DNA of 64,000 nucleotides, taken from the NCBI GenBank assembly GCA_934096235.1, contig CAKOLO010000002.1, positions 301,919-365,918 of the forward strand. Direction: 5' to 3'. Shown one piece after another: positions 18,165 through 57,265 of this stretch. Made by a program: the position numbers and the translations under genes. Position 1 is the stretch's first letter; the number at the start of each line of letters is the position of its first letter. The DNA comes from an uncultured Bacilli bacterium. Its GTDB lineage: Bacteria; Bacillota_I; Bacilli_A; RF39; UBA660. The notes under the pieces were generated by a model. The model ran no database searches and was not told the origin of the DNA. It saw only the letters and a program-made list of their open reading frames with translations.

Positions 18165-18575
18165 CTATCTTTTATTTTTGAAGAAATTACTTAATATTTC
18201 ACTAAAAATGCTTTCATATTCACAATTTTTTATTTTTGTTATTATCATATTGTTATTAACATTTTTATTATTATCAACTATATAATATATTTTCTTAATT
18301 CTTGCTTCATTTATAACTGTTAAACACATGTTGCATGGTTTTAATGTTACATATAATTCACAGTCATTTAAATTCCATGATTTAATTTTTTTGCATGCTT
18401 TTTTTATAGCGAGTATTTCTGCATGTGCCATTGGATCCTTTTTTGTAATTTTTTGATTATATGCACTGGAAATAATTTGTTTGTTTTTTGTTATTACACA
18501 TCCAATAGGTACTTCATCTTTTTTAATAGCTTTAGTTGTTAATGATATAAGCTTTTTATAAATTTTTTCATTCAT
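18165..18575 (-). CDS. tadA: tRNA-specific adenosine deaminase TadA
   Basis: CDA zinc motifs HAEILAI and PCNMCLTVI; a start at MNEKIYKKL (18575) with RBS GAGGAAAAG is preferred over the longer track ORF, which would run through the SRP RNA. Confidence 0.8.
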   Translation of the reverse strand: MNEKIYKKLISLTTKAIKKDEVPIGCVITKNKQIISSAYNQKITKKDPMAHAEILAIKKACKKIKSWNLNDCELYVTLKPCNMCLTVINEARIKKIYYIVDNNKNVNNNMIITKIKNCEYESIFSEILSNFFKNKR

Positions 18576-18594
18576 ACTTTTCCTCACAAAAAAA

Positions 18595-18664: not shown

Positions 18665-18711
18665 AAATAAATTATATATTATTTTAAATATTAAATCAAG
18701 TATTTTTATTA

Positions 18712-18727
18712 TGTTCCACGTGGAACA
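18712..18727. promoter_or_regulatory. parS-like site 1 (perfect palindrome TGTTCCACGTGGAACA)
   Basis: Exact 16-bp palindrome matching the Firmicute parS consensus TGTTNCACGTGAAACA; followed by TAATGTTAATAAC. Confidence 0.7.
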
Positions 18728-18997
18728 TAATGTTAATAACTTATATTATCTGCACATTAATAAATTTAATATAATATTTCAATGTTAATTAATTTCAAAT
18801 TAATTTGTTTATAATTATAGTTTATTTATTAAAGTATAAATTATTTTTTTAGTAAAATATTTTATTTATACATTCTTTAATAGTCAAAAATTGTAATATT
18901 ATAAGTTATATGTTTATTATATAATTCTTAAATATAGTTTTAAAGATTTCATTATGCTGTCAATTGCATAATAATTTATATTCATTTACTTATTTTA

Positions 18998-19013
18998 TGT
19001 TCCACGTGGAACA
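18998..19013. promoter_or_regulatory. parS-like site 2
   Basis: Identical 16-mer; followed by TATTGTTAATTAC. Confidence 0.7.
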
Positions 19014-19177
19014 TATTGTTAATTACTTTGAATTATTGTTTATTAATATTCTGTTTTTTCGTTAGCAACTTTACTTTTTATTGAAACATTTTTGTTTAAT
19101 TTTATAATATTTTATTCTGATTATTAAATTTCAATATAAAACCTAATGATAATATATTATTTATTTTAATAAAAAAT

Positions 19178-19193
19178 TGTTCCACGTGGAACA
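19178..19193. promoter_or_regulatory. parS-like site 3
   Basis: Identical 16-mer; followed by TTGTTAATACAAC. Confidence 0.7.
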
Positions 19194-19399
19194 TTGTTAA
19201 TACAACATATTTTGGACTTCTAATAATAATTTTCTTTCTTTCGATTGTTAATATGTTATATACATGTTACTTTATAATTAATATTTTGGATTTATCATTT
19301 TTTCGTGATGCTTTGTTAATAAATTTATCTATTTTTTGACCTTATTATTTTAATATTTCTTCTTTATTTTTTTCTAATATTTTGTTAACTGATTTTTTA

Positions 19400-19415
19400 T
19401 GTTCCACGTGGAACA
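19400..19415. promoter_or_regulatory. parS-like site 4
   Basis: Identical 16-mer; followed by TTGTTAATAACT. Confidence 0.7.
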
Positions 19416-19433
19416 TTGTTAATAACTTTTTTT

Positions 19434-19447
19434 ATTTCCCGGGAAAT
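19434..19447. promoter_or_regulatory. Noc-binding-site (NBS) consensus palindrome ATTTCCCGGGAAAT
   Basis: Exact match to the 14-bp NBS consensus described for B. subtilis Noc. It lies inside a 16-bp perfect palindrome TATTTCCCGGGAAATA flanked by T-runs, 18 bp after parS-4 and 13 bp before parS-5. CCCGGG is otherwise very rare in this ~25% GC sequence. Confidence 0.6.
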
Positions 19448-19460
19448 ATTTTTTTCATTT

Positions 19461-19476
19461 TGTTCCACGTGGAACA
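19461..19476. promoter_or_regulatory. parS-like site 5
   Basis: Identical 16-mer; immediately precedes the A-run/hairpin of the gyrA terminator. Confidence 0.7.
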
Positions 19477-19478
19477 TT

Positions 19479-19504
19479 TAAAAAAAAGAGTAATAAATTA
19501 CTCT
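19479..19504 (-). terminator. Rho-independent terminator of gyrB-gyrA operon
   Basis: Hairpin agagtaa-taaa-ttactct overlapping the gyrA stop codon, followed on the minus strand by an 8-nt T-run. Confidence 0.6.
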
Positions 19505-21930
19505 TCTTCTATAGGATTCACTTCCTTTTCAATTACTGATATTGAAGCAACTTTATTTTTATCTTTTAAATTAATTAATCTTACGCCTTTTGTTACTCTT
19601 CCCATTTGTGAAATACTATTTATATCCATTCTAATAATTATTCCATCTGATGTGATAATCATTAAGTCCTTATCATTATCTGTGGATTTAAATCCTATAA
19701 CATTTCCATTTTTTTCTGTTATATTAATTGTTTTTACACCTTTACTTCCTCTTTTTGTTTCTCTATACTCTTCTATAGCGGTTTTTTTACCATATCCATT
19801 TTCAGTAACAACAAGTAATAATTTTCCAGGTTCTGATATTTCCATTCCTACACATTTATCATTTGATAAATTAATTCCTCTTACACCTGAAGCTGTTCTT
19901 CCCATGATTCTTATTTCTTCTTCACTAAATCTTGCCATTCTTCCGTTTGAAGAACACATTAGTACTTGATCATTACCTGTTGTTTTCTTTACAGATATTA
20001 ATTCATCATCATCTTTTAGTGTAATTGCTATTTTACCACTTTGTCTTATATTATCAAATTCTGATATTAATGTTCTTTTGACTAATCCTTCTTTTGTACT
20101 AAAAAGCAAACATTTGTACGTTTCATTTTCATTTATTCTAATTATTGTATTAATTTTTTCATCCTTTTCTAATGATAATAAGTTAACAATTGGTAGTCCT
20201 TTTGCAGTTCTTGAATATTCAGGAATTTTATATCCTTTTAATCTATATACTTTTCCTTTATTTGAGAAGAATAATATATAGTCATGAGTATTCATTGATA
20301 GTAATTGTTCTACATAATCTTCTTCAGTAGTTGTCATACCTTTTATTCCAACACCACCTCTATTTTGTACTTTATATGTATCTTTTGGTGTTCTCTTAAT
20401 GTAATTTTTATTGGTAATTGTAACAATTATTTCCTCTTGTGGAATCAATGATTCGTCTTCAATATATTCTATTGCACTATTATCAATTTTAGTTCTTCTT
20501 TCATCACCATATTTAGCTTTAATTTCAAGCATTTCTTGTTTGATTATTGCTAATACTTTTTCTTCACTTGCTAATATTGATTTATATTCCTCTATTAATT
20601 TCAAAATATTTGCTAATTCCTCTTCAATTTTTTCTCTTTCTAAGCCAGTTAATCTTCTTAATTTTAATTCTAGAATTGCATCTGCTTGAATTTCGCTAAA
20701 TCCATATTTTTCAATTAATCTTTCTTTAGCTATTGAGTCACTTTGACTTTCTTTTATTATTTTAATAATATCATCTATATGATCTAAAGCAATTTTATAG
20801 CCTTCTAAAATATGTGCTCTTGCTTCAGCTTTTGCTAAATCAAATTTTGTTCTTCTAATTATTATTTCTTTTTGGTAATCAATGTATTTTGAAATAATAT
20901 CTTTAATTCCTAGTGTTCTTGGTTGACCTTGGTCTAACATTAAGAATATAATTCCAAATGTTGATTGTAATTGTGTATGTTTATATAAGTTGTTCAATAC
21001 TACATTAGCATTTGCTTCTTTTTTTAGTGTTACGACTATTTTTATACCATTTTCAATATTTGTTTCTTCGTGATAATCAGCTATTCCTTCTAATACTTTA
21101 TCTCTAACTAGTTCTGCGATTCTATTTTTTAGATCTAATGTATTAACATTATAAGGTATTTCCGTTATTACTATTCTATTTCTATTATTTGTTTCTTCTA
21201 TTTCTGCTTTACATCTTATTGTAATTGTTCCACGACCTGTCTCATAGGCTTTTTTTATTCCACTACTTCCTAAAATAATGCCACCTGTTGGAAAATCAGG
21301 ACCCTTAATATAATTCATCATTTCCATGGTATCTATTTCAGGATTATCTATATAAGCAACACAACCATCTATCACTTCACCTAGATTATGTGGTGGAATA
21401 TTTGTTGCCATTCCGACTGCAATTCCCATTGTTCCATTTACTAAGATGTTTGGGAATCTACTTGGTAATACTACTGGTTCTTTTTCAGTTTCATCAAAAT
21501 TTGGCGTGAAATCAACTGTATCTTTGTTAATATCTCTTAATAATTCTAAACTTACTTTTGCAAGTCTAGCTTCTGTGTAACGCATTGCTGCTGCACCATC
21601 ACCATCCATGTTACCAAAGTTTCCATGTCCGTCAACTAACATATATCTATAACTGAAGTCTTGAGCCATTCTAACCATTGCTTCATATATTGATGAGTCT
21701 CCATGTGGGTGATATTTTCCCATTACATCTCCAACAATTCTTGCACATTTTCTGTGTTGTTTGTCTGGTGTATATCCTGATTCATACATTGAATAAAGTA
21801 TTCTTCTATGAACTGGTTTTAAGCCATCTCTTAAATCTGGAATTGCTCTTGAGACGATAACACTCATTGAATAATCTAAAAATGAATCTTTTACTTCTTT
21901 TATTATATTATTTTGTTCTATCTTATCCAT
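19498..21930 (-). CDS. gyrA: DNA gyrase subunit A
   Basis: 810 aa; AAMRYTE active-site Tyr region, QRF..G.GNFG, C-terminal beta-pinwheel repeats. Confidence 0.95.
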
Positions 21931-25020: not shown

Positions 25021-25060
25021 TAAAAAAAGATAATTTTAATTTTAATTATCTTTTTTTGCT
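25021..25060. terminator. bidirectional hairpin terminator between comK-like and recF
   Basis: aaagataatt-ttaatttt-aattatcttt, a 10-bp stem flanked by an A-run and a T-run. Confidence 0.5.
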
Positions 25061-25497
25061 GTTCTTTCATCTAAAACAAATTTTAATCTTGTGGCTCTAA
25101 GAATTTGATTGGATAATGAGCCATATGATAAATCAAATTCCAAGATATCACCGTTCTTAAATAGAATTGCTGACCTATTATTTTCCAATTTGTAGTATTT
25201 TTCAATTTTTTCCAAATTAATCCATATGCAATCTTCTCTTTCTGGTGATGTTGTAGGAAAAAAAATCATTTTTCTACTTTCTTCTACTATTATTGGTGAT
25301 TTGTGAGTTATTCCGAGCATCTTACGAGTTCCATCTTTTCTTCCTTCAAATGAACTGCCAAAATATTCACAACTGTGTTCTAAAATTTCTTGAACTGAGT
25401 TATTAACTATGTATTCACTATCATGTTCTATTACTTTTGATTTGAACTCATCAATTGGAAGAACTAATTGTGTATCATAGTTTATTTCATAATTCAT
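25042..25497 (-). CDS. ComK-family competence transcription factor-like protein
   Basis: 151 aa; the blocks SCEYFGSSFEGRKDGTRKMLGITHKSPIIV and MIFFPTTSPEREDCIWI and FDLSYGSLSNQILRATRLK align with the conserved ComK core of B. subtilis ComK as I recall it (SCRFFGSSYAGRKAGT..ISHKPPIMV / IFLFPTLSSTRPQCGWI / ISYNSFENQVYRTAWLR). Good RBS AAAGGGGG. Confidence 0.7.
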   Translation of the reverse strand: MNYEINYDTQLVLPIDEFKSKVIEHDSEYIVNNSVQEILEHSCEYFGSSFEGRKDGTRKMLGITHKSPIIVEESRKMIFFPTTSPEREDCIWINLEKIEKYYKLENNRSAILFKNGDILEFDLSYGSLSNQILRATRLKFVLDERTAKKDN

Positions 25498-26876: not shown

Positions 26877-28286
26877 TTATTCACAAATTTTTTCTTTTAG
26901 TATCTTAATTTCTTCTTGAAGTTTTGTATTTGTTTTTAGTTCATTTGAAATTTTTTCGTGTGAGTATATAACTGTTGAATGATCTCTACCTCCAAATTCT
27001 AAGCCTATTCTTTGTAAACTTTCTTCTGTCATTATTCTACTTAAATACATTGCTATCGCTCGAGCATCTGTAACATTTTTCTTTTTCATTTTTCCTTTTA
27101 GCATCGATGCCTCTAAATTGAAGTATTTGGCAACTATATCTATGATTTTAGCTACAGAATTTGTTCTATATACTGTCTTTGGTACAAATTCTTGTAGTGC
27201 ATCTTGTGCTATTTCTAGTGTTACTTCAGGAATATTAAATGCTGCTTTATATGCAACAATTCTTATAACAGCACCTTCTAAGTTTCTTATATCACTTCCA
27301 CAGTTACTTGCTATATAGTTAATAACATCTTCATTTATATCTAAATCATAGTCATTAATCATTATTTTATTCTTAATTATATTCTTTTTAAGCTCTAGTT
27401 CTGGTGGATTAATTGATTCTGTTAATCCCCATCTAAACCTTGTTTTAAGCCTATCTTCTAGGTATTTATAGTCATTTATTGATGTATCAGAAGCAATTAT
27501 TATTTGTTTTTCATTATCATATAATGTATTAAATGTGTTAGTAAATTCTATTTGTGATTTTGTTGCGTTTTCTAGAAATTGTATATCATCAATCATCAAT
27601 ACATCAACATTTCTATATTTTTCTCTAAAAGCTTCTAAATAACTAACATTGTTATCATATTTATTTTTAGCATTTATTATGGCTCTATAGTCATTTGTAA
27701 ATTGTTCTGCAGTAATGTAGAGAACTCTTTTGTCTGAGTGATTTACTATATAATTTCCTATTGCATGCATTAAATGTGTTTTACCTAATCCACTTTTTGC
27801 ATATATAAAATAAGGATTATATAATTTTCCTGGATTTTGTGCTACTGCTAATGCTGTTCCATATGCTAATTTATTGGAATCGCCAACGACAAATGTATCA
27901 AAAGTATATTTTGGGTTAAAATTGCTTATATATTTATAATTTGTTAAATCATTTGCTGTTGATTCTTCTATTTCTTCTTCAATTTCTTTTTTACTTTGTT
28001 TTTTCGGTTTTTCAGCCATTTTTTCAAGTTTTTTTATATCTTTTTCAAACATGTAAGATATTTCACATGTATCACTTGTTATATCGTTTAATATATCTTC
28101 TATTATTGAACTATAATTTTTAGTTATATTTTGTAATAAAAGCTCATTTGTAGGTACTATTATTATTATTTTACTATCTTCATAAGAATAAAGTTTTAGA
28201 TCCTTAAATATGTAGTTATAGGACATTAATGATACTTTATTTTTGATTTTCTCTAGAAATTTTTTCCAAATATCTTCAATATCCAT
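26877..28286 (-). CDS. dnaA: chromosomal replication initiator DnaA
   Basis: 469 aa; Walker A GKSGLGKTHL, sensor/box VII, C-terminal DNA-binding HTH (DHSTV). Confidence 0.95.
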   Translation of the reverse strand: MDIEDIWKKFLEKIKNKVSLMSYNYIFKDLKLYSYEDSKIIIIVPTNELLLQNITKNYSSIIEDILNDITSDTCEISYMFEKDIKKLEKMAEKPKKQSKKEIEEEIEESTANDLTNYKYISNFNPKYTFDTFVVGDSNKLAYGTALAVAQNPGKLYNPYFIYAKSGLGKTHLMHAIGNYIVNHSDKRVLYITAEQFTNDYRAIINAKNKYDNNVSYLEAFREKYRNVDVLMIDDIQFLENATKSQIEFTNTFNTLYDNEKQIIIASDTSINDYKYLEDRLKTRFRWGLTESINPPELELKKNIIKNKIMINDYDLDINEDVINYIASNCGSDIRNLEGAVIRIVAYKAAFNIPEVTLEIAQDALQEFVPKTVYRTNSVAKIIDIVAKYFNLEASMLKGKMKKKNVTDARAIAMYLSRIMTEESLQRIGLEFGGRDHSTVIYSHEKISNELKTNTKLQEEIKILKEKICE

Positions 28287-28438: not shown

Positions 28439-28548
28439 TTATCCACAATATCAACAAATTTACAATTTAATTATTTTTTTAATTGTGGATAACTTGTTGA
28501 TAAGTTAACATAATATTGTGGATATAGTGTTGATAAGTTAACATAATA
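28439..28548. promoter_or_regulatory. oriC DnaA-box cluster
   Basis: Perfect DnaA boxes TTATCCACA (28439-28447) and TGTGGATAA (28484-28492); one-mismatch boxes at 28448, 28495, 28517 and 28528; a 20-bp direct repeat GTTGATAAGTTAACATAATA x2. A further one-mismatch box TGTTGATAA at 26796-26804 lies between dnaA and dnaN. Confidence 0.75.
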
Positions 28549-28612: not shown

Positions 28613-30076
28613 ATGAATAAGAAAGAATTGTTAGAAAATTATTTAAAAAAATTATACAAAATATATATTGAAAAAGACTTTAATGAGTTTGTTAATACGA
28701 TACTAAGTTATAACATAAGGATTGGAGATTATAAGAAAGATATTTCATCAATTTCTAAAAAAATTTTTGACGAAATATTGGTTTTACTTCCTGAAAGTAA
28801 GGCGAAATTCTCATATAAAGAATTTACCAATTTTTATAAGATAAATATAATATATAAAGAATATAACGATCCAACGCCTAAAGTCATAATAGATGTTCCG
28901 GTGTTTATAGAAAACTATGAAAAAATAACAAATAATTTAATAAAATTTTTAATAGAAAATAAAATTAATTCTTATATTAAACTACAAAAAGTATCTCAAA
29001 ATGCTTTACTTGAAATTCGCGTTGATAATGAAGCAGAAGCTAAAAAGATAGTTAATCACTTTAAAACAAATAAAGAAATAGTTCAAGAAATAAAATCTAG
29101 GGTAGTTCCATTTTTACCTGAAGATAATCTACTAGGTTTTTCATATGAATATAAACCATATAATTTTAAAAATTTTTATTATGTTTGTTTATATGAATAT
29201 TTTTCAACACTTAAATCTATCGATAATTTAACTTTGGATGGTTTAGTTGCTTACATAGATAATAAATATAAAGTTGAAAGAAGACTAAATAAAAAGAGAA
29301 TGCTATTATCAATTTATAATAGTATTAGGGTTATAAATGAAGAAGATGATATTTATTCTATGTTTAGATATAATTCTGATATGAATATTGGCAGTATAAA
29401 TCCTAATGAGTTTGATTTAAAACTTGATGAAAATAAGATGATATTTTTTGTTAATAAATTGGATGAAAGAATAATTTCATATGGAAGTGAAGAATATTTG
29501 AATTTAGTTTATTCAAAATTTTATGATAATTTTATTAAAAGAGAAGAGAGTTCTACATATTATGGCTATTTTTATAATATTTTTAGTAAAATTTTATCAG
29601 ATGATTACAAAGATATTGATAAATTATTAGATTTTTCTAATATGCAAAAAGATTATATTTATACTTTAATGATGTTAATATCTAGTTTGTTCTTTGCATA
29701 TAAAAAAATGAATTTTTCATTAAATGATGTTTATTCTATATTAAAATATGTGCTATTTAAAAAATATAAACTAGAAATCAAAATAAAATCTTCAGAAGAA
29801 TATGAAGAAAAGAAAAATATATATATTTTTCCATTAAATATTGAATATGGAAATAAAGTCGTTGATTTAAAAGATAAATCTAAAATAACAGTTAAGGAAT
29901 ATTTTAGGCAAAATAAAATTGAGGATACCATTCCTTTAAATTCTCTTGTATATATGAAAGATGGAAAAATATTAAAGGGAGAAGATTTTTTAAGAGATTT
30001 ATATAAATATATTGGTTTATATGATTCATTTGAAGAATTGAGAAATTCACTAATAAGTTTAATAGAATTTAAATAA
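28613..30076 (+). CDS. hypothetical cytoplasmic protein (487 aa, K/Y/N-rich, no recognisable domain)
   Basis: Long uninterrupted ORF with an RBS-like GGAGATATGGG upstream; no TM segment or known motif. Confidence 0.5.
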   Translation: MNKKELLENYLKKLYKIYIEKDFNEFVNTILSYNIRIGDYKKDISSISKKIFDEILVLLPESKAKFSYKEFTNFYKINIIYKEYNDPTPKVIIDVPVFIENYEKITNNLIKFLIENKINSYIKLQKVSQNALLEIRVDNEAEAKKIVNHFKTNKEIVQEIKSRVVPFLPEDNLLGFSYEYKPYNFKNFYYVCLYEYFSTLKSIDNLTLDGLVAYIDNKYKVERRLNKKRMLLSIYNSIRVINEEDDIYSMFRYNSDMNIGSINPNEFDLKLDENKMIFFVNKLDERIISYGSEEYLNLVYSKFYDNFIKREESSTYYGYFYNIFSKILSDDYKDIDKLLDFSNMQKDYIYTLMMLISSLFFAYKKMNFSLNDVYSILKYVLFKKYKLEIKIKSSEEYEEKKNIYIFPLNIEYGNKVVDLKDKSKITVKEYFRQNKIEDTIPLNSLVYMKDGKILKGEDFLRDLYKYIGLYDSFEELRNSLISLIEFK

Positions 30077-36276: not shown

Positions 36277-37509
36277 ATGGACGAGAACAAAGATAAAATT
36301 TATTACATACCAGTTGAAGATATTATACCTAATAGATTTCAACCAAGGCTTGCTTTTGATGAAAAAGAATTAAATGAACTTGCTAATTCTATTATTAAAT
36401 ATGGTGTTATTCAACCTATTGTACTTAGAAGTATTGGTGAAAAATATGAAATAATCGCAGGTGAAAGAAGATATAAAGCTTCATGCATTGCTGGTCTTAA
36501 AAAGATTCCTGCTATTATAAATAATACTGATGATAATACTAGTGCTGAGATAGCTTTACTTGAAAATCTTCAAAGAAAAAATTTATCTGTTATTGAAGAA
36601 GCACAATCATATAAAAAGTTAATGGATAGAGGTTTTACTCAAGAAGATATAGCTATAAAACTTGGTATTAGTCAATCAGCTGTAGCTAATAAAATGAGAC
36701 TTTTAAATTTGCCAAAAGAAGTACAAGATGCTCTTTTATATAATAGAATATCTGAAAGACATGCTAGAAGTTTATTGTCACTTAATAATGAAGATTTACA
36801 AAAAAGTTTGCTACATAGAATTACTAGTGAAAAGTTAACTGTTAGACAAACGGAAGAAGCAGTTAGTGAATTATTAAATAGAGATAAGATTGAAAAAGAA
36901 GAACTACCAAGTGATATTCAAAAATTTTTAAAACCAGAACCAGTGGTTGAAACTAAAGAACAAGTTATCGGTAATAATCCTGTTGAGGAATATTTAGATA
37001 TTAAAGTTCCTGATGTAGTTTCAATTGAACCTGAAACATCTGTTTTAACTGAATATACTGATGATACTCAAATAATAAATCCATTTCAAAATGTTAATTC
37101 AGCTAATGAGGTTCAAAATACTATTAATAGTAATATTGTGTCAAATAATGAAATATCAAGTAATATTGAGACACCATTTATAAGTGAAAATGTTAATAAT
37201 GCTTACAATGAAACTGAAAAAGAAACGGTTAATTTTGTAAAAAATGATGAACCAGCAAATAATACAAATAATACTTACTTCAATCCATATAAGTTTCCAG
37301 ATGAAAAGGAAGAAGTGAAAGAAGAAATAACTGATGAAGATTCTTTATTAAATGAATATGGTGAAGTTAATTTACCAAAAGTAATTAATAAAGTAAGAGA
37401 TTTTGTTAGTAGTTTAGATCAAGTAAGTAGTTTAATTGAAACTAGTGAAGTAGATTTAACTGATAAATACCAAATTATTATTGAAATTAATAAGAACACA
37501 CCTATGTAG
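36277..37509 (+). CDS. noc: ParB-family protein, Noc-like (nucleoid occlusion protein paralogue) with long low-complexity C-terminal extension
   Basis: ParB N-domain (IPNRFQPR, GERRYKA, ENLQRKNL) and HTH (TQEDIAIKLGISQSAVANKMRLLNLP). The ISERHARSLLSL and IPNRFQPR blocks resemble B. subtilis Noc (ITERHARAL, VPNRFQPR) more than Spo0J (GHGR, PNPYQPR), from my recollection of those sequences. Sits immediately after rsmG where noc lies in Bacillus. The ~200-aa N/E-rich C-terminus is unusual. Confidence 0.65.
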   Translation: MDENKDKIYYIPVEDIIPNRFQPRLAFDEKELNELANSIIKYGVIQPIVLRSIGEKYEIIAGERRYKASCIAGLKKIPAIINNTDDNTSAEIALLENLQRKNLSVIEEAQSYKKLMDRGFTQEDIAIKLGISQSAVANKMRLLNLPKEVQDALLYNRISERHARSLLSLNNEDLQKSLLHRITSEKLTVRQTEEAVSELLNRDKIEKEELPSDIQKFLKPEPVVETKEQVIGNNPVEEYLDIKVPDVVSIEPETSVLTEYTDDTQIINPFQNVNSANEVQNTINSNIVSNNEISSNIETPFISENVNNAYNETEKETVNFVKNDEPANNTNNTYFNPYKFPDEKEEVKEEITDEDSLLNEYGEVNLPKVINKVRDFVSSLDQVSSLIETSEVDLTDKYQIIIEINKNTPM

Positions 37510-37605: not shown

Positions 37606-38763
37606 ATGGGATTAATAAAAGCATTGTCTGGAGCTACTACTACAGCTTTAGGAGATCAATTTAAAGAGTTTGTGACTTGCCCTACTATTTCAAGAAACGT
37701 TTTAATTCAAAGAGGTATTGTTATTCATGGTAATGGTAATAGTAATCCAAGTGATGGAATTATTACTAATGGAAGTACTATTGTGGTACCTCAAGGTATG
37801 GCGATGATGCTTATTGAGAATGGTGAAATAAAAGAATTTACTGCTGATGCTGGTACTTTCTACTTTGATACTAGTAGTGAACCTAGTATATTTACTGGTG
37901 GTCTTGGAAAGGGAATTATAGATACATTTAAGACTATTGGAAAACGTTTTACTTATGGAGGACAAACTGCTAAAGATCAAAGAGTTTACTATGTAAATTT
38001 ATTAACTATTGCAGGTAATAAATTTGGTTCACCACAACCAAGAAAAATTACTGATGAGAAATATGGTATGTTAGAAGTTACTTTCTTTGGAGAATATGCT
38101 TTTAAAGTAGCTGATCCAATTATGTTAGTAAATAGTGTTATAGGAGCTAATGCAGCTGATACTGTTTATTATGAAGATGTTATTGGTAGTCAATTACAAT
38201 CTAAATTTATTGAAAAATTAACTCAAGCAATTACAGTTGTTATGAGAAAACATAAAGTTTCTTTTGGAGATATTGGTTTATATAATGGAGATATTTCTGA
38301 AGAAATGAATGTATGTTTAGATGATTCTTGGAGAAAAAATTTTGGTTTAGAAGTTGTAGATGTAGCTATTGGAGATATTAACCTCACTGATGAATCTATG
38401 ATTAAAGTTAATAAGATTGATGAAGCTACTATATTTTCAAATAAAAATTTACAATCTGGTTTAATGGCTAGTGCTTCGGCTGATGCTTTAAGAAATGCAT
38501 CTTCTAATGAAAATGGTGCAATGATGGGATTTATGGGTATGAATATGGCTACTGGTGCTGTTAATAATATGATGGGAACAATAAATAATGGTACTGATGT
38601 AAATGGTTATAAACCTGAAACTAATCAACCTGAAATGGGAACAATATTCAATAATGAAGAAGTTAAAGTTGAAGATGTACCTGAAGTAAAAAAATGTCCA
38701 AATTGTGGAGAAATAGCTGTTGGTAAGTTCTGTAGTAATTGTGGAACTAAAATGGAAGAATAA
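37606..38763 (+). CDS. SPFH/band-7-like domain protein with C-terminal zinc-ribbon
   Basis: 385 aa; C-terminal CPNCGEIAVGKFCSNCG zinc ribbon; N-terminal ~250 aa resembles SPFH-type proteins (assignment tentative). Confidence 0.4.
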   Translation: MGLIKALSGATTTALGDQFKEFVTCPTISRNVLIQRGIVIHGNGNSNPSDGIITNGSTIVVPQGMAMMLIENGEIKEFTADAGTFYFDTSSEPSIFTGGLGKGIIDTFKTIGKRFTYGGQTAKDQRVYYVNLLTIAGNKFGSPQPRKITDEKYGMLEVTFFGEYAFKVADPIMLVNSVIGANAADTVYYEDVIGSQLQSKFIEKLTQAITVVMRKHKVSFGDIGLYNGDISEEMNVCLDDSWRKNFGLEVVDVAIGDINLTDESMIKVNKIDEATIFSNKNLQSGLMASASADALRNASSNENGAMMGFMGMNMATGAVNNMMGTINNGTDVNGYKPETNQPEMGTIFNNEEVKVEDVPEVKKCPNCGEIAVGKFCSNCGTKMEE

Positions 38764-50720: not shown

Positions 50721-51306
50721 TTGTTTAATTACAATTATTTTTATTTTTTTAATAAAATATATTGACACATTATAAATTATTTGATAATATATATTTGTCC
50801 AATAGATAATTAAATGTTATATCTATTATATAATGATTTATTTAAGTTTAATTATTTTTATAAACTTATATAATAATATAAATGGTTTAATTATATTAGT
50901 GAAAAAGTCTATAAATTTTTTACTTATTTATATTGGATATAATAATATTATTTTTCAATTATATGTTCTTAATTAGTATTAATTTACTAACTTAATTATG
51001 TATCTATCTTATTAATAATATCTTATATCAAAATAATATAAATAATAAAAATATCTTATTAATTTAAGAAATAGATGTCTTATCTACTAAGGACAAATGT
51101 TATAACGTTGAGAAAGTAAAACTCAAAATGATAAGAAATTATGCTAAATACTGATAATATTTAGAAGTATTTATATTAATTTAAATATTAATATAAATGA
51201 TTCATAATTTATTTTCGGAAACTCGAAACAATCTTGTTTTATCAGAACGGGTTGTTTTTTGTTTGTTTAAGAATGTGAAAAGTGATATTATAATTATGGT
51301 GAATAT

Positions 51307-56222: not shown

Positions 56223-56750
56223 CTATTTAGTTTTAAATTTACTTAATACTTTTGCGGCTACGAATATTATTGAGTCGCTATTTTTAATTGCTTGTTTTTT
56301 TCCTATAGCTTTGCCACCTACTGTTAGTGATGAGATAATTGAACTTACTAATAGAGTAACAATTACTGTAGATACATTTAACTTGGTAGATATATTTATT
56401 GCAAGCATTGCTCCTATAGAACCACTTACTATACCACATATATCTCCGATAACATCATTACATATACTTGCGATTGTACTTGAGTTTTTAACTAGATAAA
56501 CTCCTTCTTTTGAACCTTTTATTTTTTTAGCACTTTTCGCATGAAATGATGCTTCGTTAGCTGTTAAGACAGCTGTACCTATAATATCAAATAAAATACC
56601 TATACCAATAAATATTACACATAGCACCATTAAAAGTATTGTATTATTGAATTTTGATATTAGATAGTTAGATGCACTACTAAAAATTAAAGCTATAAAA
56701 AAAGTCATTAAAAATGCCTTTAGAATCCAATTATCTTTTTTCATTTTCAA
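56223..56750 (-). CDS. hypothetical integral membrane protein
   Basis: Four predicted TM segments; RBS AAAGGGAG. Confidence 0.45.
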   Translation of the reverse strand: MKMKKDNWILKAFLMTFFIALIFSSASNYLISKFNNTILLMVLCVIFIGIGILFDIIGTAVLTANEASFHAKSAKKIKGSKEGVYLVKNSSTIASICNDVIGDICGIVSGSIGAMLAINISTKLNVSTVIVTLLVSSIISSLTVGGKAIGKKQAIKNSDSIIFVAAKVLSKFKTK

Positions 56751-57265
56751 TAAACTCCCTTTAAATATGTAAAATAGTATGGAATATTATAAATTAATTT
56801 TACGGCTTTGGTCGAGTTGAATTTCTCTAATTCCTACCATTAGTTACCTGCAGGCGATTTCTCTTTAAAAGAATTAATCACTTGTTACCATTAATGATCA
56901 CTCGATCACCACTTAGTCCGCACTTCAATCTTTATAATATAGGCATACTAGAGGTTTTCCCAAGCAAACATGTATCACCTTTATTCGCTTTTGCAATTTA
57001 TTTTTCAATCACTATCCCAATAAATCACTCACGACATGTGTTTTCATATTTTCCGATGTGAATTAAGGAATTCAGATATATGCCATTACATCTTATCCTT
57101 AAAACTAAAATTATATATCCACCCCAAACTGGGCGTAAGAAGCGTAATATATAAAGTATCATTTTACACAATTGATGGATTTTTAGCCCCATCTTCTAGT
57201 GGTATGTTTGACTAGTATAATGCTCCATACATCTAGAATTATAGCATATTTTAATGAAAATGTCA

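Follow-up and report, generated by a model that had tools for sequence, protein, structure and literature searches.

An origin-proximal array of interleaved parS and Noc-binding sites as a candidate centromere in a low-GC Bacilli lineage

ParB/parS and Noc/NBS (NBS, Noc-binding site) are treated as separate systems that arose by duplication, the first marking the centromere and the second serving as a membrane tether of the chromosome arms that blocks division. Here we analyzed a 64-kb window (64,000 nucleotides; contig CAKOLO010000002.1, positions 301,919 to 365,918, assembly GCA_934096235.1) from an uncultured Bacilli bacterium, in which the spacer after gyrA carries both kinds of site, i.e., five parS palindromes and one perfect NBS. 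Comparison with related sequences indicates that this is a real, strongly conserved centromere-like array, and that what is new in it is the dual parS/NBS platform together with a Noc that has no membrane helix. We favor the reading, to which we give a probability of roughly 0.62, that two ParB-family proteins are loaded next to each other on this spacer, which would be a dedicated centromere close to the origin and conserved in the lineage. In a full-text literature search, with incomplete coverage, neither arrays that interleave parS with NBS nor a Noc family lacking the membrane helix were found described.

Results

Five parS palindromes and an NBS share one non-coding spacer

A previous inspection of the window (the sequence-only reading) had described five perfect copies of TGTTCCACGTGGAACA in an AT-rich, gene-free spacer that runs from the signal recognition particle (SRP) RNA and tadA to the 3′ end of gyrA, about 9 kb from dnaA, and had assigned them to the symmetric Firmicute form of parS. 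Recounting of the sites and analysis of boundaries, GC content and open reading frames (ORFs) bore this out. The chance expectation for exact copies in the window is 0.01, no further match with two or fewer mismatches lies in these 64 kb, and the extra matches returned by a looser scan of the window (N at positions 5 and 12, up to three mismatches) are weak and at chance level. Five of the six CACGTG hexamers in the window are the parS sites. Per half-site logic, TGTTCCACGTGGAACA matches the B. subtilis consensus TGTTNCACGTGAAACA at 15 of 15 specified positions, and both of its arms use the accepted half-site TGTTCCAC; ParB accepts the half-site form GTT(C/T)CAC (PMC7022226, PMC7383237). The palindrome match, the origin-proximal place and the conservation amid diverging flanks (see below) are features of chromosomal parS that these sites share. 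Their spacings, 286, 180, 222 and 61 bp, are irregular and not those of a tandem repeat, as had been noted, so that the regular period of a plasmid-type centromere is missing from the window (range 61–286 bp).

In addition to the parS sites, a perfect 16-bp NBS, TATTTCCCGGGAAATA, which the sequence-only reading had missed, lies between parS4 and parS5. It agrees with the consensus at 16 of 16 positions and holds the sole CCCGGG of the window. The elements of the array are as follows.

18669–19497, no strand: non-coding AT-rich array spacer, delimited by ORF, Rfam and GC analysis
18712–18727, no strand: parS1, TGTTCCACGTGGAACA, a short way upstream of the SRP-RNA promoter; its orthologue does not vary among six close species
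18998–19013, no strand: parS2, exact match to TGTTCCACGTGGAACA
19178–19193, no strand: parS3, exact match, invariant in the close-species alignment
19400–19415, no strand: parS4, member of the gyrA-proximal parS-NBS-parS triad, which is kept down to 69% DnaA identity
19433–19448, no strand: NBS, TATTTCCCGGGAAATA, equal to the consensus of Jalal et al. 2020; an NBS is present in every related array
19461–19476, no strand: parS5, directly after the gyrA terminator

The spacer measures 829 bp from the end of the SRP RNA (18669) to 19497, next to the gyrA stop at 19498, or 847 bp if counted from the longest tadA ORF, and its GC content is 17.4%, or 13.4% without the sites. It contains no ORF longer than 33 aa, except for a spurious antisense ORF running into gyrA, and no Rfam match bar a weak hairpin-type one at the gyrA terminator; with the ORF and Rfam scans empty, a hidden gene or RNA was rejected. 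A GC-skew switch at ~28.3 kb and a cluster of DnaA boxes at 28439–28536 place oriC 9–10 kb from the array. An oriC-like role of the spacer was rejected as well, since DnaA boxes are absent there and clustered upstream of dnaA.

The array is conserved at one place in the lineage

A DnaA-anchored scan with one genome per species gave 34 loci with 69–97% DnaA identity and ~25% GC, labeled as uncultured Bacilli, Mollicutes, Tenericutes, Clostridium sp. CAG:1000 and CAG:524, and including the closed 1.53-Mb chromosome CP091739.1. Comparison of the syntenic spacer, which the sequence-only reading had proposed, found an array in each of the 28 loci that extend into the region, with the sites confined to the spacer 3′ of gyrA within the ~21 kb of each locus. 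The array spacers are non-coding, follow gyrA and range from 0.17 to 1.3 kb. In 27 of the 28 there are one to nine exact parS, TGTT[C/T]CACGTG[G/A]AACA, and one to seven perfect NBS; the remaining locus (L036) has three parS with one mismatch each beside an NBS, and no exact parS. Most of the 28 loci have a gyrA-proximal parS-NBS-parS triad, and elsewhere an NBS still adjoins a parS at the gyrA end. The minimal array (L037) is a 167-bp spacer made up of the triad and the SRP promoter.

In six species with GyrA ~98% identical, the columns of the sites are 98.9% identical, compared to 50–63% for the rest of the spacer and 40% for random sequence; conserved blocks outside the sites comprise the terminator of gyrA, the promoter of the SRP RNA and a directional flank, GTTATTAACA. 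Judged from these alignments, the array is under strong purifying selection. The proposal of a dedicated array in the sequence-only reading is upheld in that the locus is non-coding, origin-proximal and conserved, and has to be amended in that the array does not consist of parS only, since NBS is mixed in.

A scan of metagenomes with the pattern parS, 5–35 nt, NBS, which selects for the pair, matched at least 120 contigs. Low GC (19–35%) characterizes at least 118 of the 120 matched contigs listed, and among the matches listed nearly all that run into a neighboring gene have gyrA and/or dnaX next to the array, with neither gene visible in a few short contigs; GyrA identity across the listed contigs is 44–99%. 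Two contigs have true tandem forms. In L121 (1–320) a 72-bp unit of parS plus NBS is repeated in ~4.5 copies, and in L118 (5100–5370) seven copies of a 38-bp parS unit precede one NBS and the gyrA terminator. The outlier is L135 (599–4110), a contig with 49% GC that probably comes from Clostridia, where a Noc-like gene (Q/K/Q/R at the four specificity positions described below), a 1-kb spacer with three to four parS and one NBS, soj and spo0J follow one another in this order; the spo0J is canonical, with residues R/S/N/G, and the Noc-like gene is apparently frameshifted in the assembly. The layout of L135 indicates that parS and NBS near the origin are not confined to the low-GC lineage and occur with canonical par genes too.

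Conservation of this kind bears on whether the palindromes might be a mobile or structural repeat, resembling miniature inverted-repeat transposable elements or repetitive extragenic palindromes (MITE/REP-like), or else RNA hairpins acting as terminator or attenuator between gyrA and the SRP RNA. Three of the palindromes do score as terminator-like in a simple scan, and the directional flank common to four of the five parS suggests the copying of a longer unit. However, the location is fixed in all relatives, and instead of the dispersed and variable placement of such elements no copies occur beyond the arrays in the window or the related loci. Furthermore, what is conserved is the primary sequence, equal to two independently defined protein-binding consensuses, and not just pairing potential: these are perfect DNA palindromes, and covariation is absent. 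Viral contigs and plasmids gave no match to the parS-NBS pattern, and on that ground an origin from a mobile element, phage or plasmid was rejected. We regard a repeat or hairpin as extremely improbable.

parS and NBS are two discrete classes, closely paired

To describe the sites as a population, a census was taken across 668 kb of related loci on the scaffold that parS and NBS share, T-N-TT-N-C-N-C/G-N-G-N-AA-N-A. At positions 2 and 7, both halves carried bases of parS type in 127 sites and of NBS type in 46, which left three odd sites; the hybrid half-site forms between parS and NBS are TGTTTCCC and TATTTCAC, and no palindrome in the 668 kb joins one parS half to one NBS half. Position 5 is C in 188 and T in 67 of the parS half-sites, and T in 92 of 92 NBS half-sites. 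Two discrete classes with almost no hybrids argue for two distinct recognition specificities and not for one relaxed reader. In a logo made over all arrays from 322 NBS and 505 parS, the NBS appears inside a palindrome of ~22–24 bp, AAATTATTTCCCGGGAAATAATTT, and parS inside one of 18 bp, ATGTT(C/T)CACGTG(A/G)AACAT.

The centers of adjacent parS and NBS are mostly 24–58 bp apart in the genome set, which was not selected for spacing, compared to mostly 100–200 bp for adjacent parS. The NBS is thus tightly paired with a parS. This can be set against the explanation that the spacer is an ordinary parS-only centromere in which the NBS, one of many scattered over the chromosome, lies by chance, the two systems being functionally unrelated. 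A density of one NBS per 64 kb is roughly what is usual, given that B. subtilis and S. aureus have ~40–70 NBS over the origin-proximal chromosome (PMC5540599), and further NBS occur in some relatives, within or close to dnaX or at other places. A chance NBS does not, however, account for the presence of NBS, up to seven of them, in every array examined, for a place in the gyrA-proximal triad that is constant down to 69% DnaA identity, for the joint duplication of parS and NBS in the 72-bp unit of L121, or for a parS-NBS distance so much below the parS-parS distance; nor was any NBS found outside the spacer in ~600 kb of DnaA-anchored loci. We consider coincidence decidedly unlikely.

The Noc-like protein has Noc-type specificity residues and no membrane-targeting helix

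The window has a single ParB-family gene:

36277–37509, plus strand: Noc-like gene, 410 aa, directly after rsmG, with PF02195 (ParB_N) and PF17762 (HTH_ParB)

Within the ORI cluster it lies directly downstream of rsmG (gidB), where noc is expected, the cluster dnaA-...-parA-parB-noc-gidAB having been inferred for the Firmicutes ancestor (PMC8136486). Among structures the protein is nearer to Noc, at 195 bits (7NFU) and 183 bits (7OL9), than to Spo0J/ParB, at 155–161 bits; its score with the NCBIfam Noc model (TIGR04285) is 271.5 bits, below the cut-off of 315. The same protein is found on contigs of metagenome-assembled genomes (MAGs), e.g., GCA_964325505.1.

ParB has R173/T179/A184/G201 at the four positions that determine specificity, where Noc has Q173/K179/K184/R201 (Jalal et al. 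2020, PMC7383237). R173 and G201 never vary among ParB orthologues, and NBS specificity needs Q173/R201 together with K or R at 179 or 184, the latter sufficing in 91% of NBS-specific variants (PMC7383237). The Noc-like protein has Q173, K179, N184 and R201, i.e., it agrees with Noc at three of the four positions (Q, K, R), position 184 being N, S or V across the family; in place of the R173 and G201 of canonical ParB, Q and R are found throughout. In 20 orthologues from the loci the residues are Q, K/R, N/S/V and R, and in the best 120 homologues of the N-terminal half (at least 61% identity) Q...R is found wherever the motif is readable. From a representative library of 1.84 billion proteins clustered at 50% identity the best 150 matches were taken; their identity over the N-terminal 205 aa is 56–83%, Q173 and R201 occur in every one, and 118 are QKNR. 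The exact variants QKNR, QKSR, QKVR and QRNR do not occur in the accessible part of the supplementary text of Jalal et al. (PMC7383237). Because of its Noc-type specificity residues, the Noc-like protein is likely to be the reader of NBS and not of parS.

In Noc, the first 10 amino acids form an amphipathic helix that is required for membrane binding and nucleoid occlusion (PMC8429893). This helix is missing from the Noc-like protein: residue 2 aligns to residue 24 of B. subtilis Noc (7OL9), there is no upstream in-frame start, and the protein begins 17 aa before the PNRFQPR box. The alignment start thus indicates that ~22–23 N-terminal residues, with the amphipathic helix, are absent. Each of the 20 orthologues likewise begins just before the PNRFQPR box, as do ~143 of the 150 best representatives (14–21 residues before it; lengths 242–831 aa). 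With no membrane-targeting region, the paralogue should be able to load and spread but would not hold DNA at the membrane.

The remainder of the protein is that of a CTP-binding-type clamp in outline. The N-domain motifs GERRY and ENLQR, of the CTP-binding type, are invariant in 41 sequences, and an AlphaFold model built with these has a confident N-terminal and DNA-binding part (8–207), a disordered part (220–361) and a small folded C-terminal domain (366–404). The disordered linker is ~150 aa long in the protein of the window (residues ~205–360) and 100–600 aa in the family, with the motifs D/E-I-x-K-F-L, VEEYLDIKVPEVV and INPFQ conserved across the lineage.

The sequence-only reading had raised the possibility that this protein has dual specificity. 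Both its residues, Q173/K179/N184/R201 as against the invariant R173/G201 of ParB, and the sites, with a perfect NBS of its own in the array and discrete classes of 127, 46 and three members, speak against that proposal. The same evidence bears on a broader version of it, in which canonical ParB and ParA were lost, and one protein, either the Noc-like one or another factor, reads parS and NBS and provides centromere function. It would explain the absence of soj and spo0J from ~84 kb around oriC and from all lineage loci, and the deviation, at positions 184 and 171, of the Noc-like protein from the consensus of Noc; moreover, dual-specificity variants do occur in the mutational scan of Jalal et al. 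(PMC7383237). On the other hand, Q173 and R201 are invariant in the family, while parS-specific variants need R173 and dual ones mostly have T/S at 201. The census is strictly bimodal, with no hybrids and with different preferences at position 5, although a relaxed reader would tolerate hybrids, and the parS variants observed (C/T at position 5) are exactly those that canonical ParB tolerates (PMC7022226). A single reader is therefore unlikely in our view.

No canonical ParB or ParA was found near the origin

The ORFs of the window were searched with Pfam, NCBIfam and hidden Markov model (HMM) scans, and the window and its flanks with HMM scans in six reading frames. Several of the results have to be counted against a two-protein centromere. 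Neither a canonical ParB (R173/G201) nor a ParA was found in the window plus 10 kb on each side (~84 kb around oriC), where the six-frame HMM scans gave no second ParB-family gene; the sequence-only reading had been right that soj-spo0J do not follow rsmG and that the window has one ParB-family gene. Nor did the related loci of the lineage yield a canonical ParB or ParA, and soj-spo0J are absent after the noc-like gene in four distant members, in which rsmG is followed by that gene. A Spo0J probe from B. subtilis and a Soj probe, run by tblastn over 169 loci (1.63 Mb), had their sole match in L135, from the different lineage with 49% GC. When the Noc-like N-terminal half was used as the query, the best matches belonged to the same Noc-like family, with Q...R in all readable cases.

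The protein and its sites give further grounds for caution. Position 184 is N and not K, and position 171, a DNA-contact position occupied by K in both ParB and Noc, is I, V or L in many members, where K is usual; the affinity and exact specificity of the Noc-like protein are predicted ones. Perfect extra NBS lie in or just after dnaX in nine relatives (L048, L050, L055, L079, L089, L095, L131, L150, L151), and one relative (L168, at 5906) has an NBS in the jag-mnmE intergenic region, so that in some members NBS also lie outside the array; in the origin regions sampled, NBS is concentrated in the array, with occasional extra sites in relatives. As to binding, spreading and segregation, the array is a candidate centromere-like element.

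Since parS is strictly conserved and R173/G201 are invariant in known parS readers, we infer that the parS reader is a canonical ParB encoded elsewhere in the genome. There is a small, appreciable chance of a more unusual arrangement, namely that the lineage is without canonical ParABS and the array between gyrA and dnaX is the core of an undescribed system for segregation or origin organization. The helix-less Noc descendant, with its long disordered linkers and short motifs, would then work with a separate parS reader, or would itself read both sites in two coupled modes. In a related reading, the lineage would retain, or have returned to, an early stage of Noc, at which DNA specificity had switched, the sites were still centromeric and membrane tethering was not yet acquired.

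A model for two clamps at one centromere

In characterized systems ParB is a CTP-dependent clamp that loads at parS, slides to the flanks, and builds the partition and SMC-loading complex. For the array we infer, from sequence, binding and CTP-dependent loading. According to the two-protein reading that we favor, the five parS palindromes would nucleate a canonical ParB, and the NBS between parS4 and parS5 would nucleate the Noc-derived paralogue encoded 17 kb away. The paralogue retains N-domain motifs for CTP binding, a recognition helix of NBS type and the domain for dimerization at the C-terminus, and would be expected to load and spread at the centromere without membrane tethering; it would be a second centromere-associated clamp and not a classical nucleoid-occlusion factor. 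Arrays may expand and contract by duplication of units, in line with the tandem forms seen in relatives.

The closeness of the two sites could also mean that the NBS-bound Noc-like protein opposes ParB, either as a roadblock or insulator (e.g., shielding gyrA or the SRP-RNA promoter) or as a competitor setting how large the partition complex becomes. Tightly bound proteins are known to stop ParB-family clamps. The NBS edge is only 9–22 bp from the parS edge, and the NBS is mostly at the gyrA-proximal end of the array. However, in some species NBS occur throughout the array or outnumber parS (seven NBS and two parS in L032; four and two in L030), a distribution unlike that of a boundary element, and CTP-bound Noc-type proteins leave the nucleation site and slide (PMC8429893). 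We hold such opposition to be very unlikely.

Boundaries of the spacer and other features of the window

The elements around the sites are listed below; past the SRP RNA the gene order is tadA, dnaX, ybaB, recR.

19416–19425, plus strand: directional flank TGTTAATAAC, equal to GTTATTAACA read from gyrA to SRP; one example, the flank abutting four of the five parS
19480–19507, minus strand: gyrA stop codon, hairpin and T-run, a likely intrinsic terminator, kept in close species and with a weak hairpin-type Rfam match
18671–18699, minus strand: likely SRP-RNA promoter, TTGATT-17-TATAAT, ending 3 nt before the 5′ end of the RNA, conserved in close species and present in L037
18589–18668, minus strand: small SRP RNA, the downstream boundary of the spacer (Rfam RF00169, 48.1 bits; gathering score 40)
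19498–21930, minus strand: gyrA, the upstream boundary of the spacer, from the ORF annotation
18165–18576, minus strand: tadA, with its start at 18576 after a GAGGAA ribosome-binding site; a longer ORF to 18650 would overlap the SRP RNA
28439–28536, no strand: DnaA-box cluster (oriC), upstream of dnaA (26877–28286, minus strand)

The motif TGTTAAT(AAC) occurs seven times in the spacer, compared to ~0.65 expected, always on the plus strand. Four copies (18731, 19017, 19195, 19417) directly abut parS, and the orthologous copies are conserved in close species; the other three are at 18783, 19246 and 19314. The motif looks like a –35 hexamer (TTAACA, minus strand) whose 17-nt spacer would be occupied by parS, but the –10 is weak. 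Predicted promoters in the spacer number 17, which is not above the 12 ± 4 of shuffled sequence, and the idea of parS inside promoters was therefore set aside.

The noc-like gene is followed by an SPFH-domain gene, a PBP1 gene (minus strand), rpoE (RNA polymerase delta), prfA, prmC and spoIIR. The SPFH/Band-7 gene (37606–38763, plus strand) starts 97 nt downstream of the noc-like gene; as a core membrane partner it was rejected, since a 56-aa ORF takes its place in the distant relative L168, where the synteny is otherwise kept. An ORF of 487 aa (28613–30076, plus strand), without a Pfam or NCBIfam match, lies between the oriC DnaA boxes and rpmH. It was rejected as a core partner too, being absent from L168, which indicates that it is restricted to part of the lineage. 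In the dnaA-dnaN-recF-gyrB-gyrA block, comK (25042–25497, minus strand) sits between dnaN and recF, as it does in L168. Farther away, the window contains a full-length ornate large extremophilic (OLE) RNA (56763–57244, minus strand, 207 bits), adjoined by an unannotated ORF of 175 aa (56223–56750, minus strand) with no Pfam match, and a PGK RNA motif (51072–51164, plus strand).

Discussion

Most parS sites of B. subtilis lie inside genes. That chromosome has 10 parS, eight of them in the ori domain, with the consensus TGTTNCACGTGAAACA (PMC7022226, Table 1). The array shares with the B. subtilis parS/Spo0J system this family of 16-bp palindromes, the origin-proximal place, and the expectation of ParB nucleation and SMC loading. 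It differs in that single sites are there spread over a large region, whereas here five (one to nine in relatives) are gathered in one spacer, with no other site in the sampled origin region of the lineage, and soj-spo0J are absent from the ORI cluster.

Clustered chromosomal parS are also known in Caulobacter, Corynebacterium and Myxococcus. In P. aeruginosa, parS1-4 form a cluster near oriC (PMC7022226). Such clusters have in common with the array that several close sites near oriC make up one centromere and that some of them are intergenic. They span several kb to tens of kb, however, usually lie beside parAB and contain parS only, as opposed to the compact mixed array described here. The sequence-only reading had drawn a contrast with the scattered parS of Bacillus, and the sites of B. 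subtilis are dispersed; as clustering is known outside Bacillus, it is less novel taken alone than that reading had suggested. To our knowledge, interleaving with sites for a second ParB-family paralogue has not been reported for the clustered parS of other phyla.

Plasmid centromeres made of tandem repeats, such as sopC of F, consist of short inverted-repeat sites of ParB type in non-coding DNA. The 38-bp units of L118 and the 72-bp units of L121 are likewise true tandem arrays. The array of the window, unlike sopC, is chromosomal, has the chromosomal parS sequence and irregular spacing, and mixes two types of site. The Clostridia-type cluster of L135 resembles it in having parS and NBS near the origin; there soj/spo0J adjoin the sites, whereas in the lineage of the window the array lies between gyrA and dnaX with no soj-spo0J nearby.

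With the Noc system of B. subtilis and S. aureus the lineage shares the NBS, TATTTCCCGGGAAATA, the residues Q173/K179/R201, a gene after rsmG, and CTP-type N-domain motifs together with a C-terminal domain. The Noc-like protein differs in lacking the amphipathic helix and alpha-2, like a natural truncation of ~22 residues, in having N or S at 184 and a linker of 100–600 aa, and in scoring below the NCBIfam cut-off. The NBS of the lineage, in turn, are concentrated beside parS at one locus in the origin regions sampled.

Across a very diverse lineage, then, both types of site are interleaved at one compact locus, sometimes as one duplicated unit, and the same lineage has a Noc without the membrane-targeting region and has soj-spo0J gone from their ancestral place. 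It offers a natural test case for what a Noc-type CTP clamp does without membrane binding, for whether two ParB-family clamps on the same DNA cooperate or compete, and for how the sites and functions of Noc diverged from those of ParB. In practical terms, parS-NBS pairs after gyrA give a simple signature by which the origin region can be located when MAGs from this abundant group of the gut and rumen are examined. If the lineage is truly without ParB and ParA, the system would be much more unusual.

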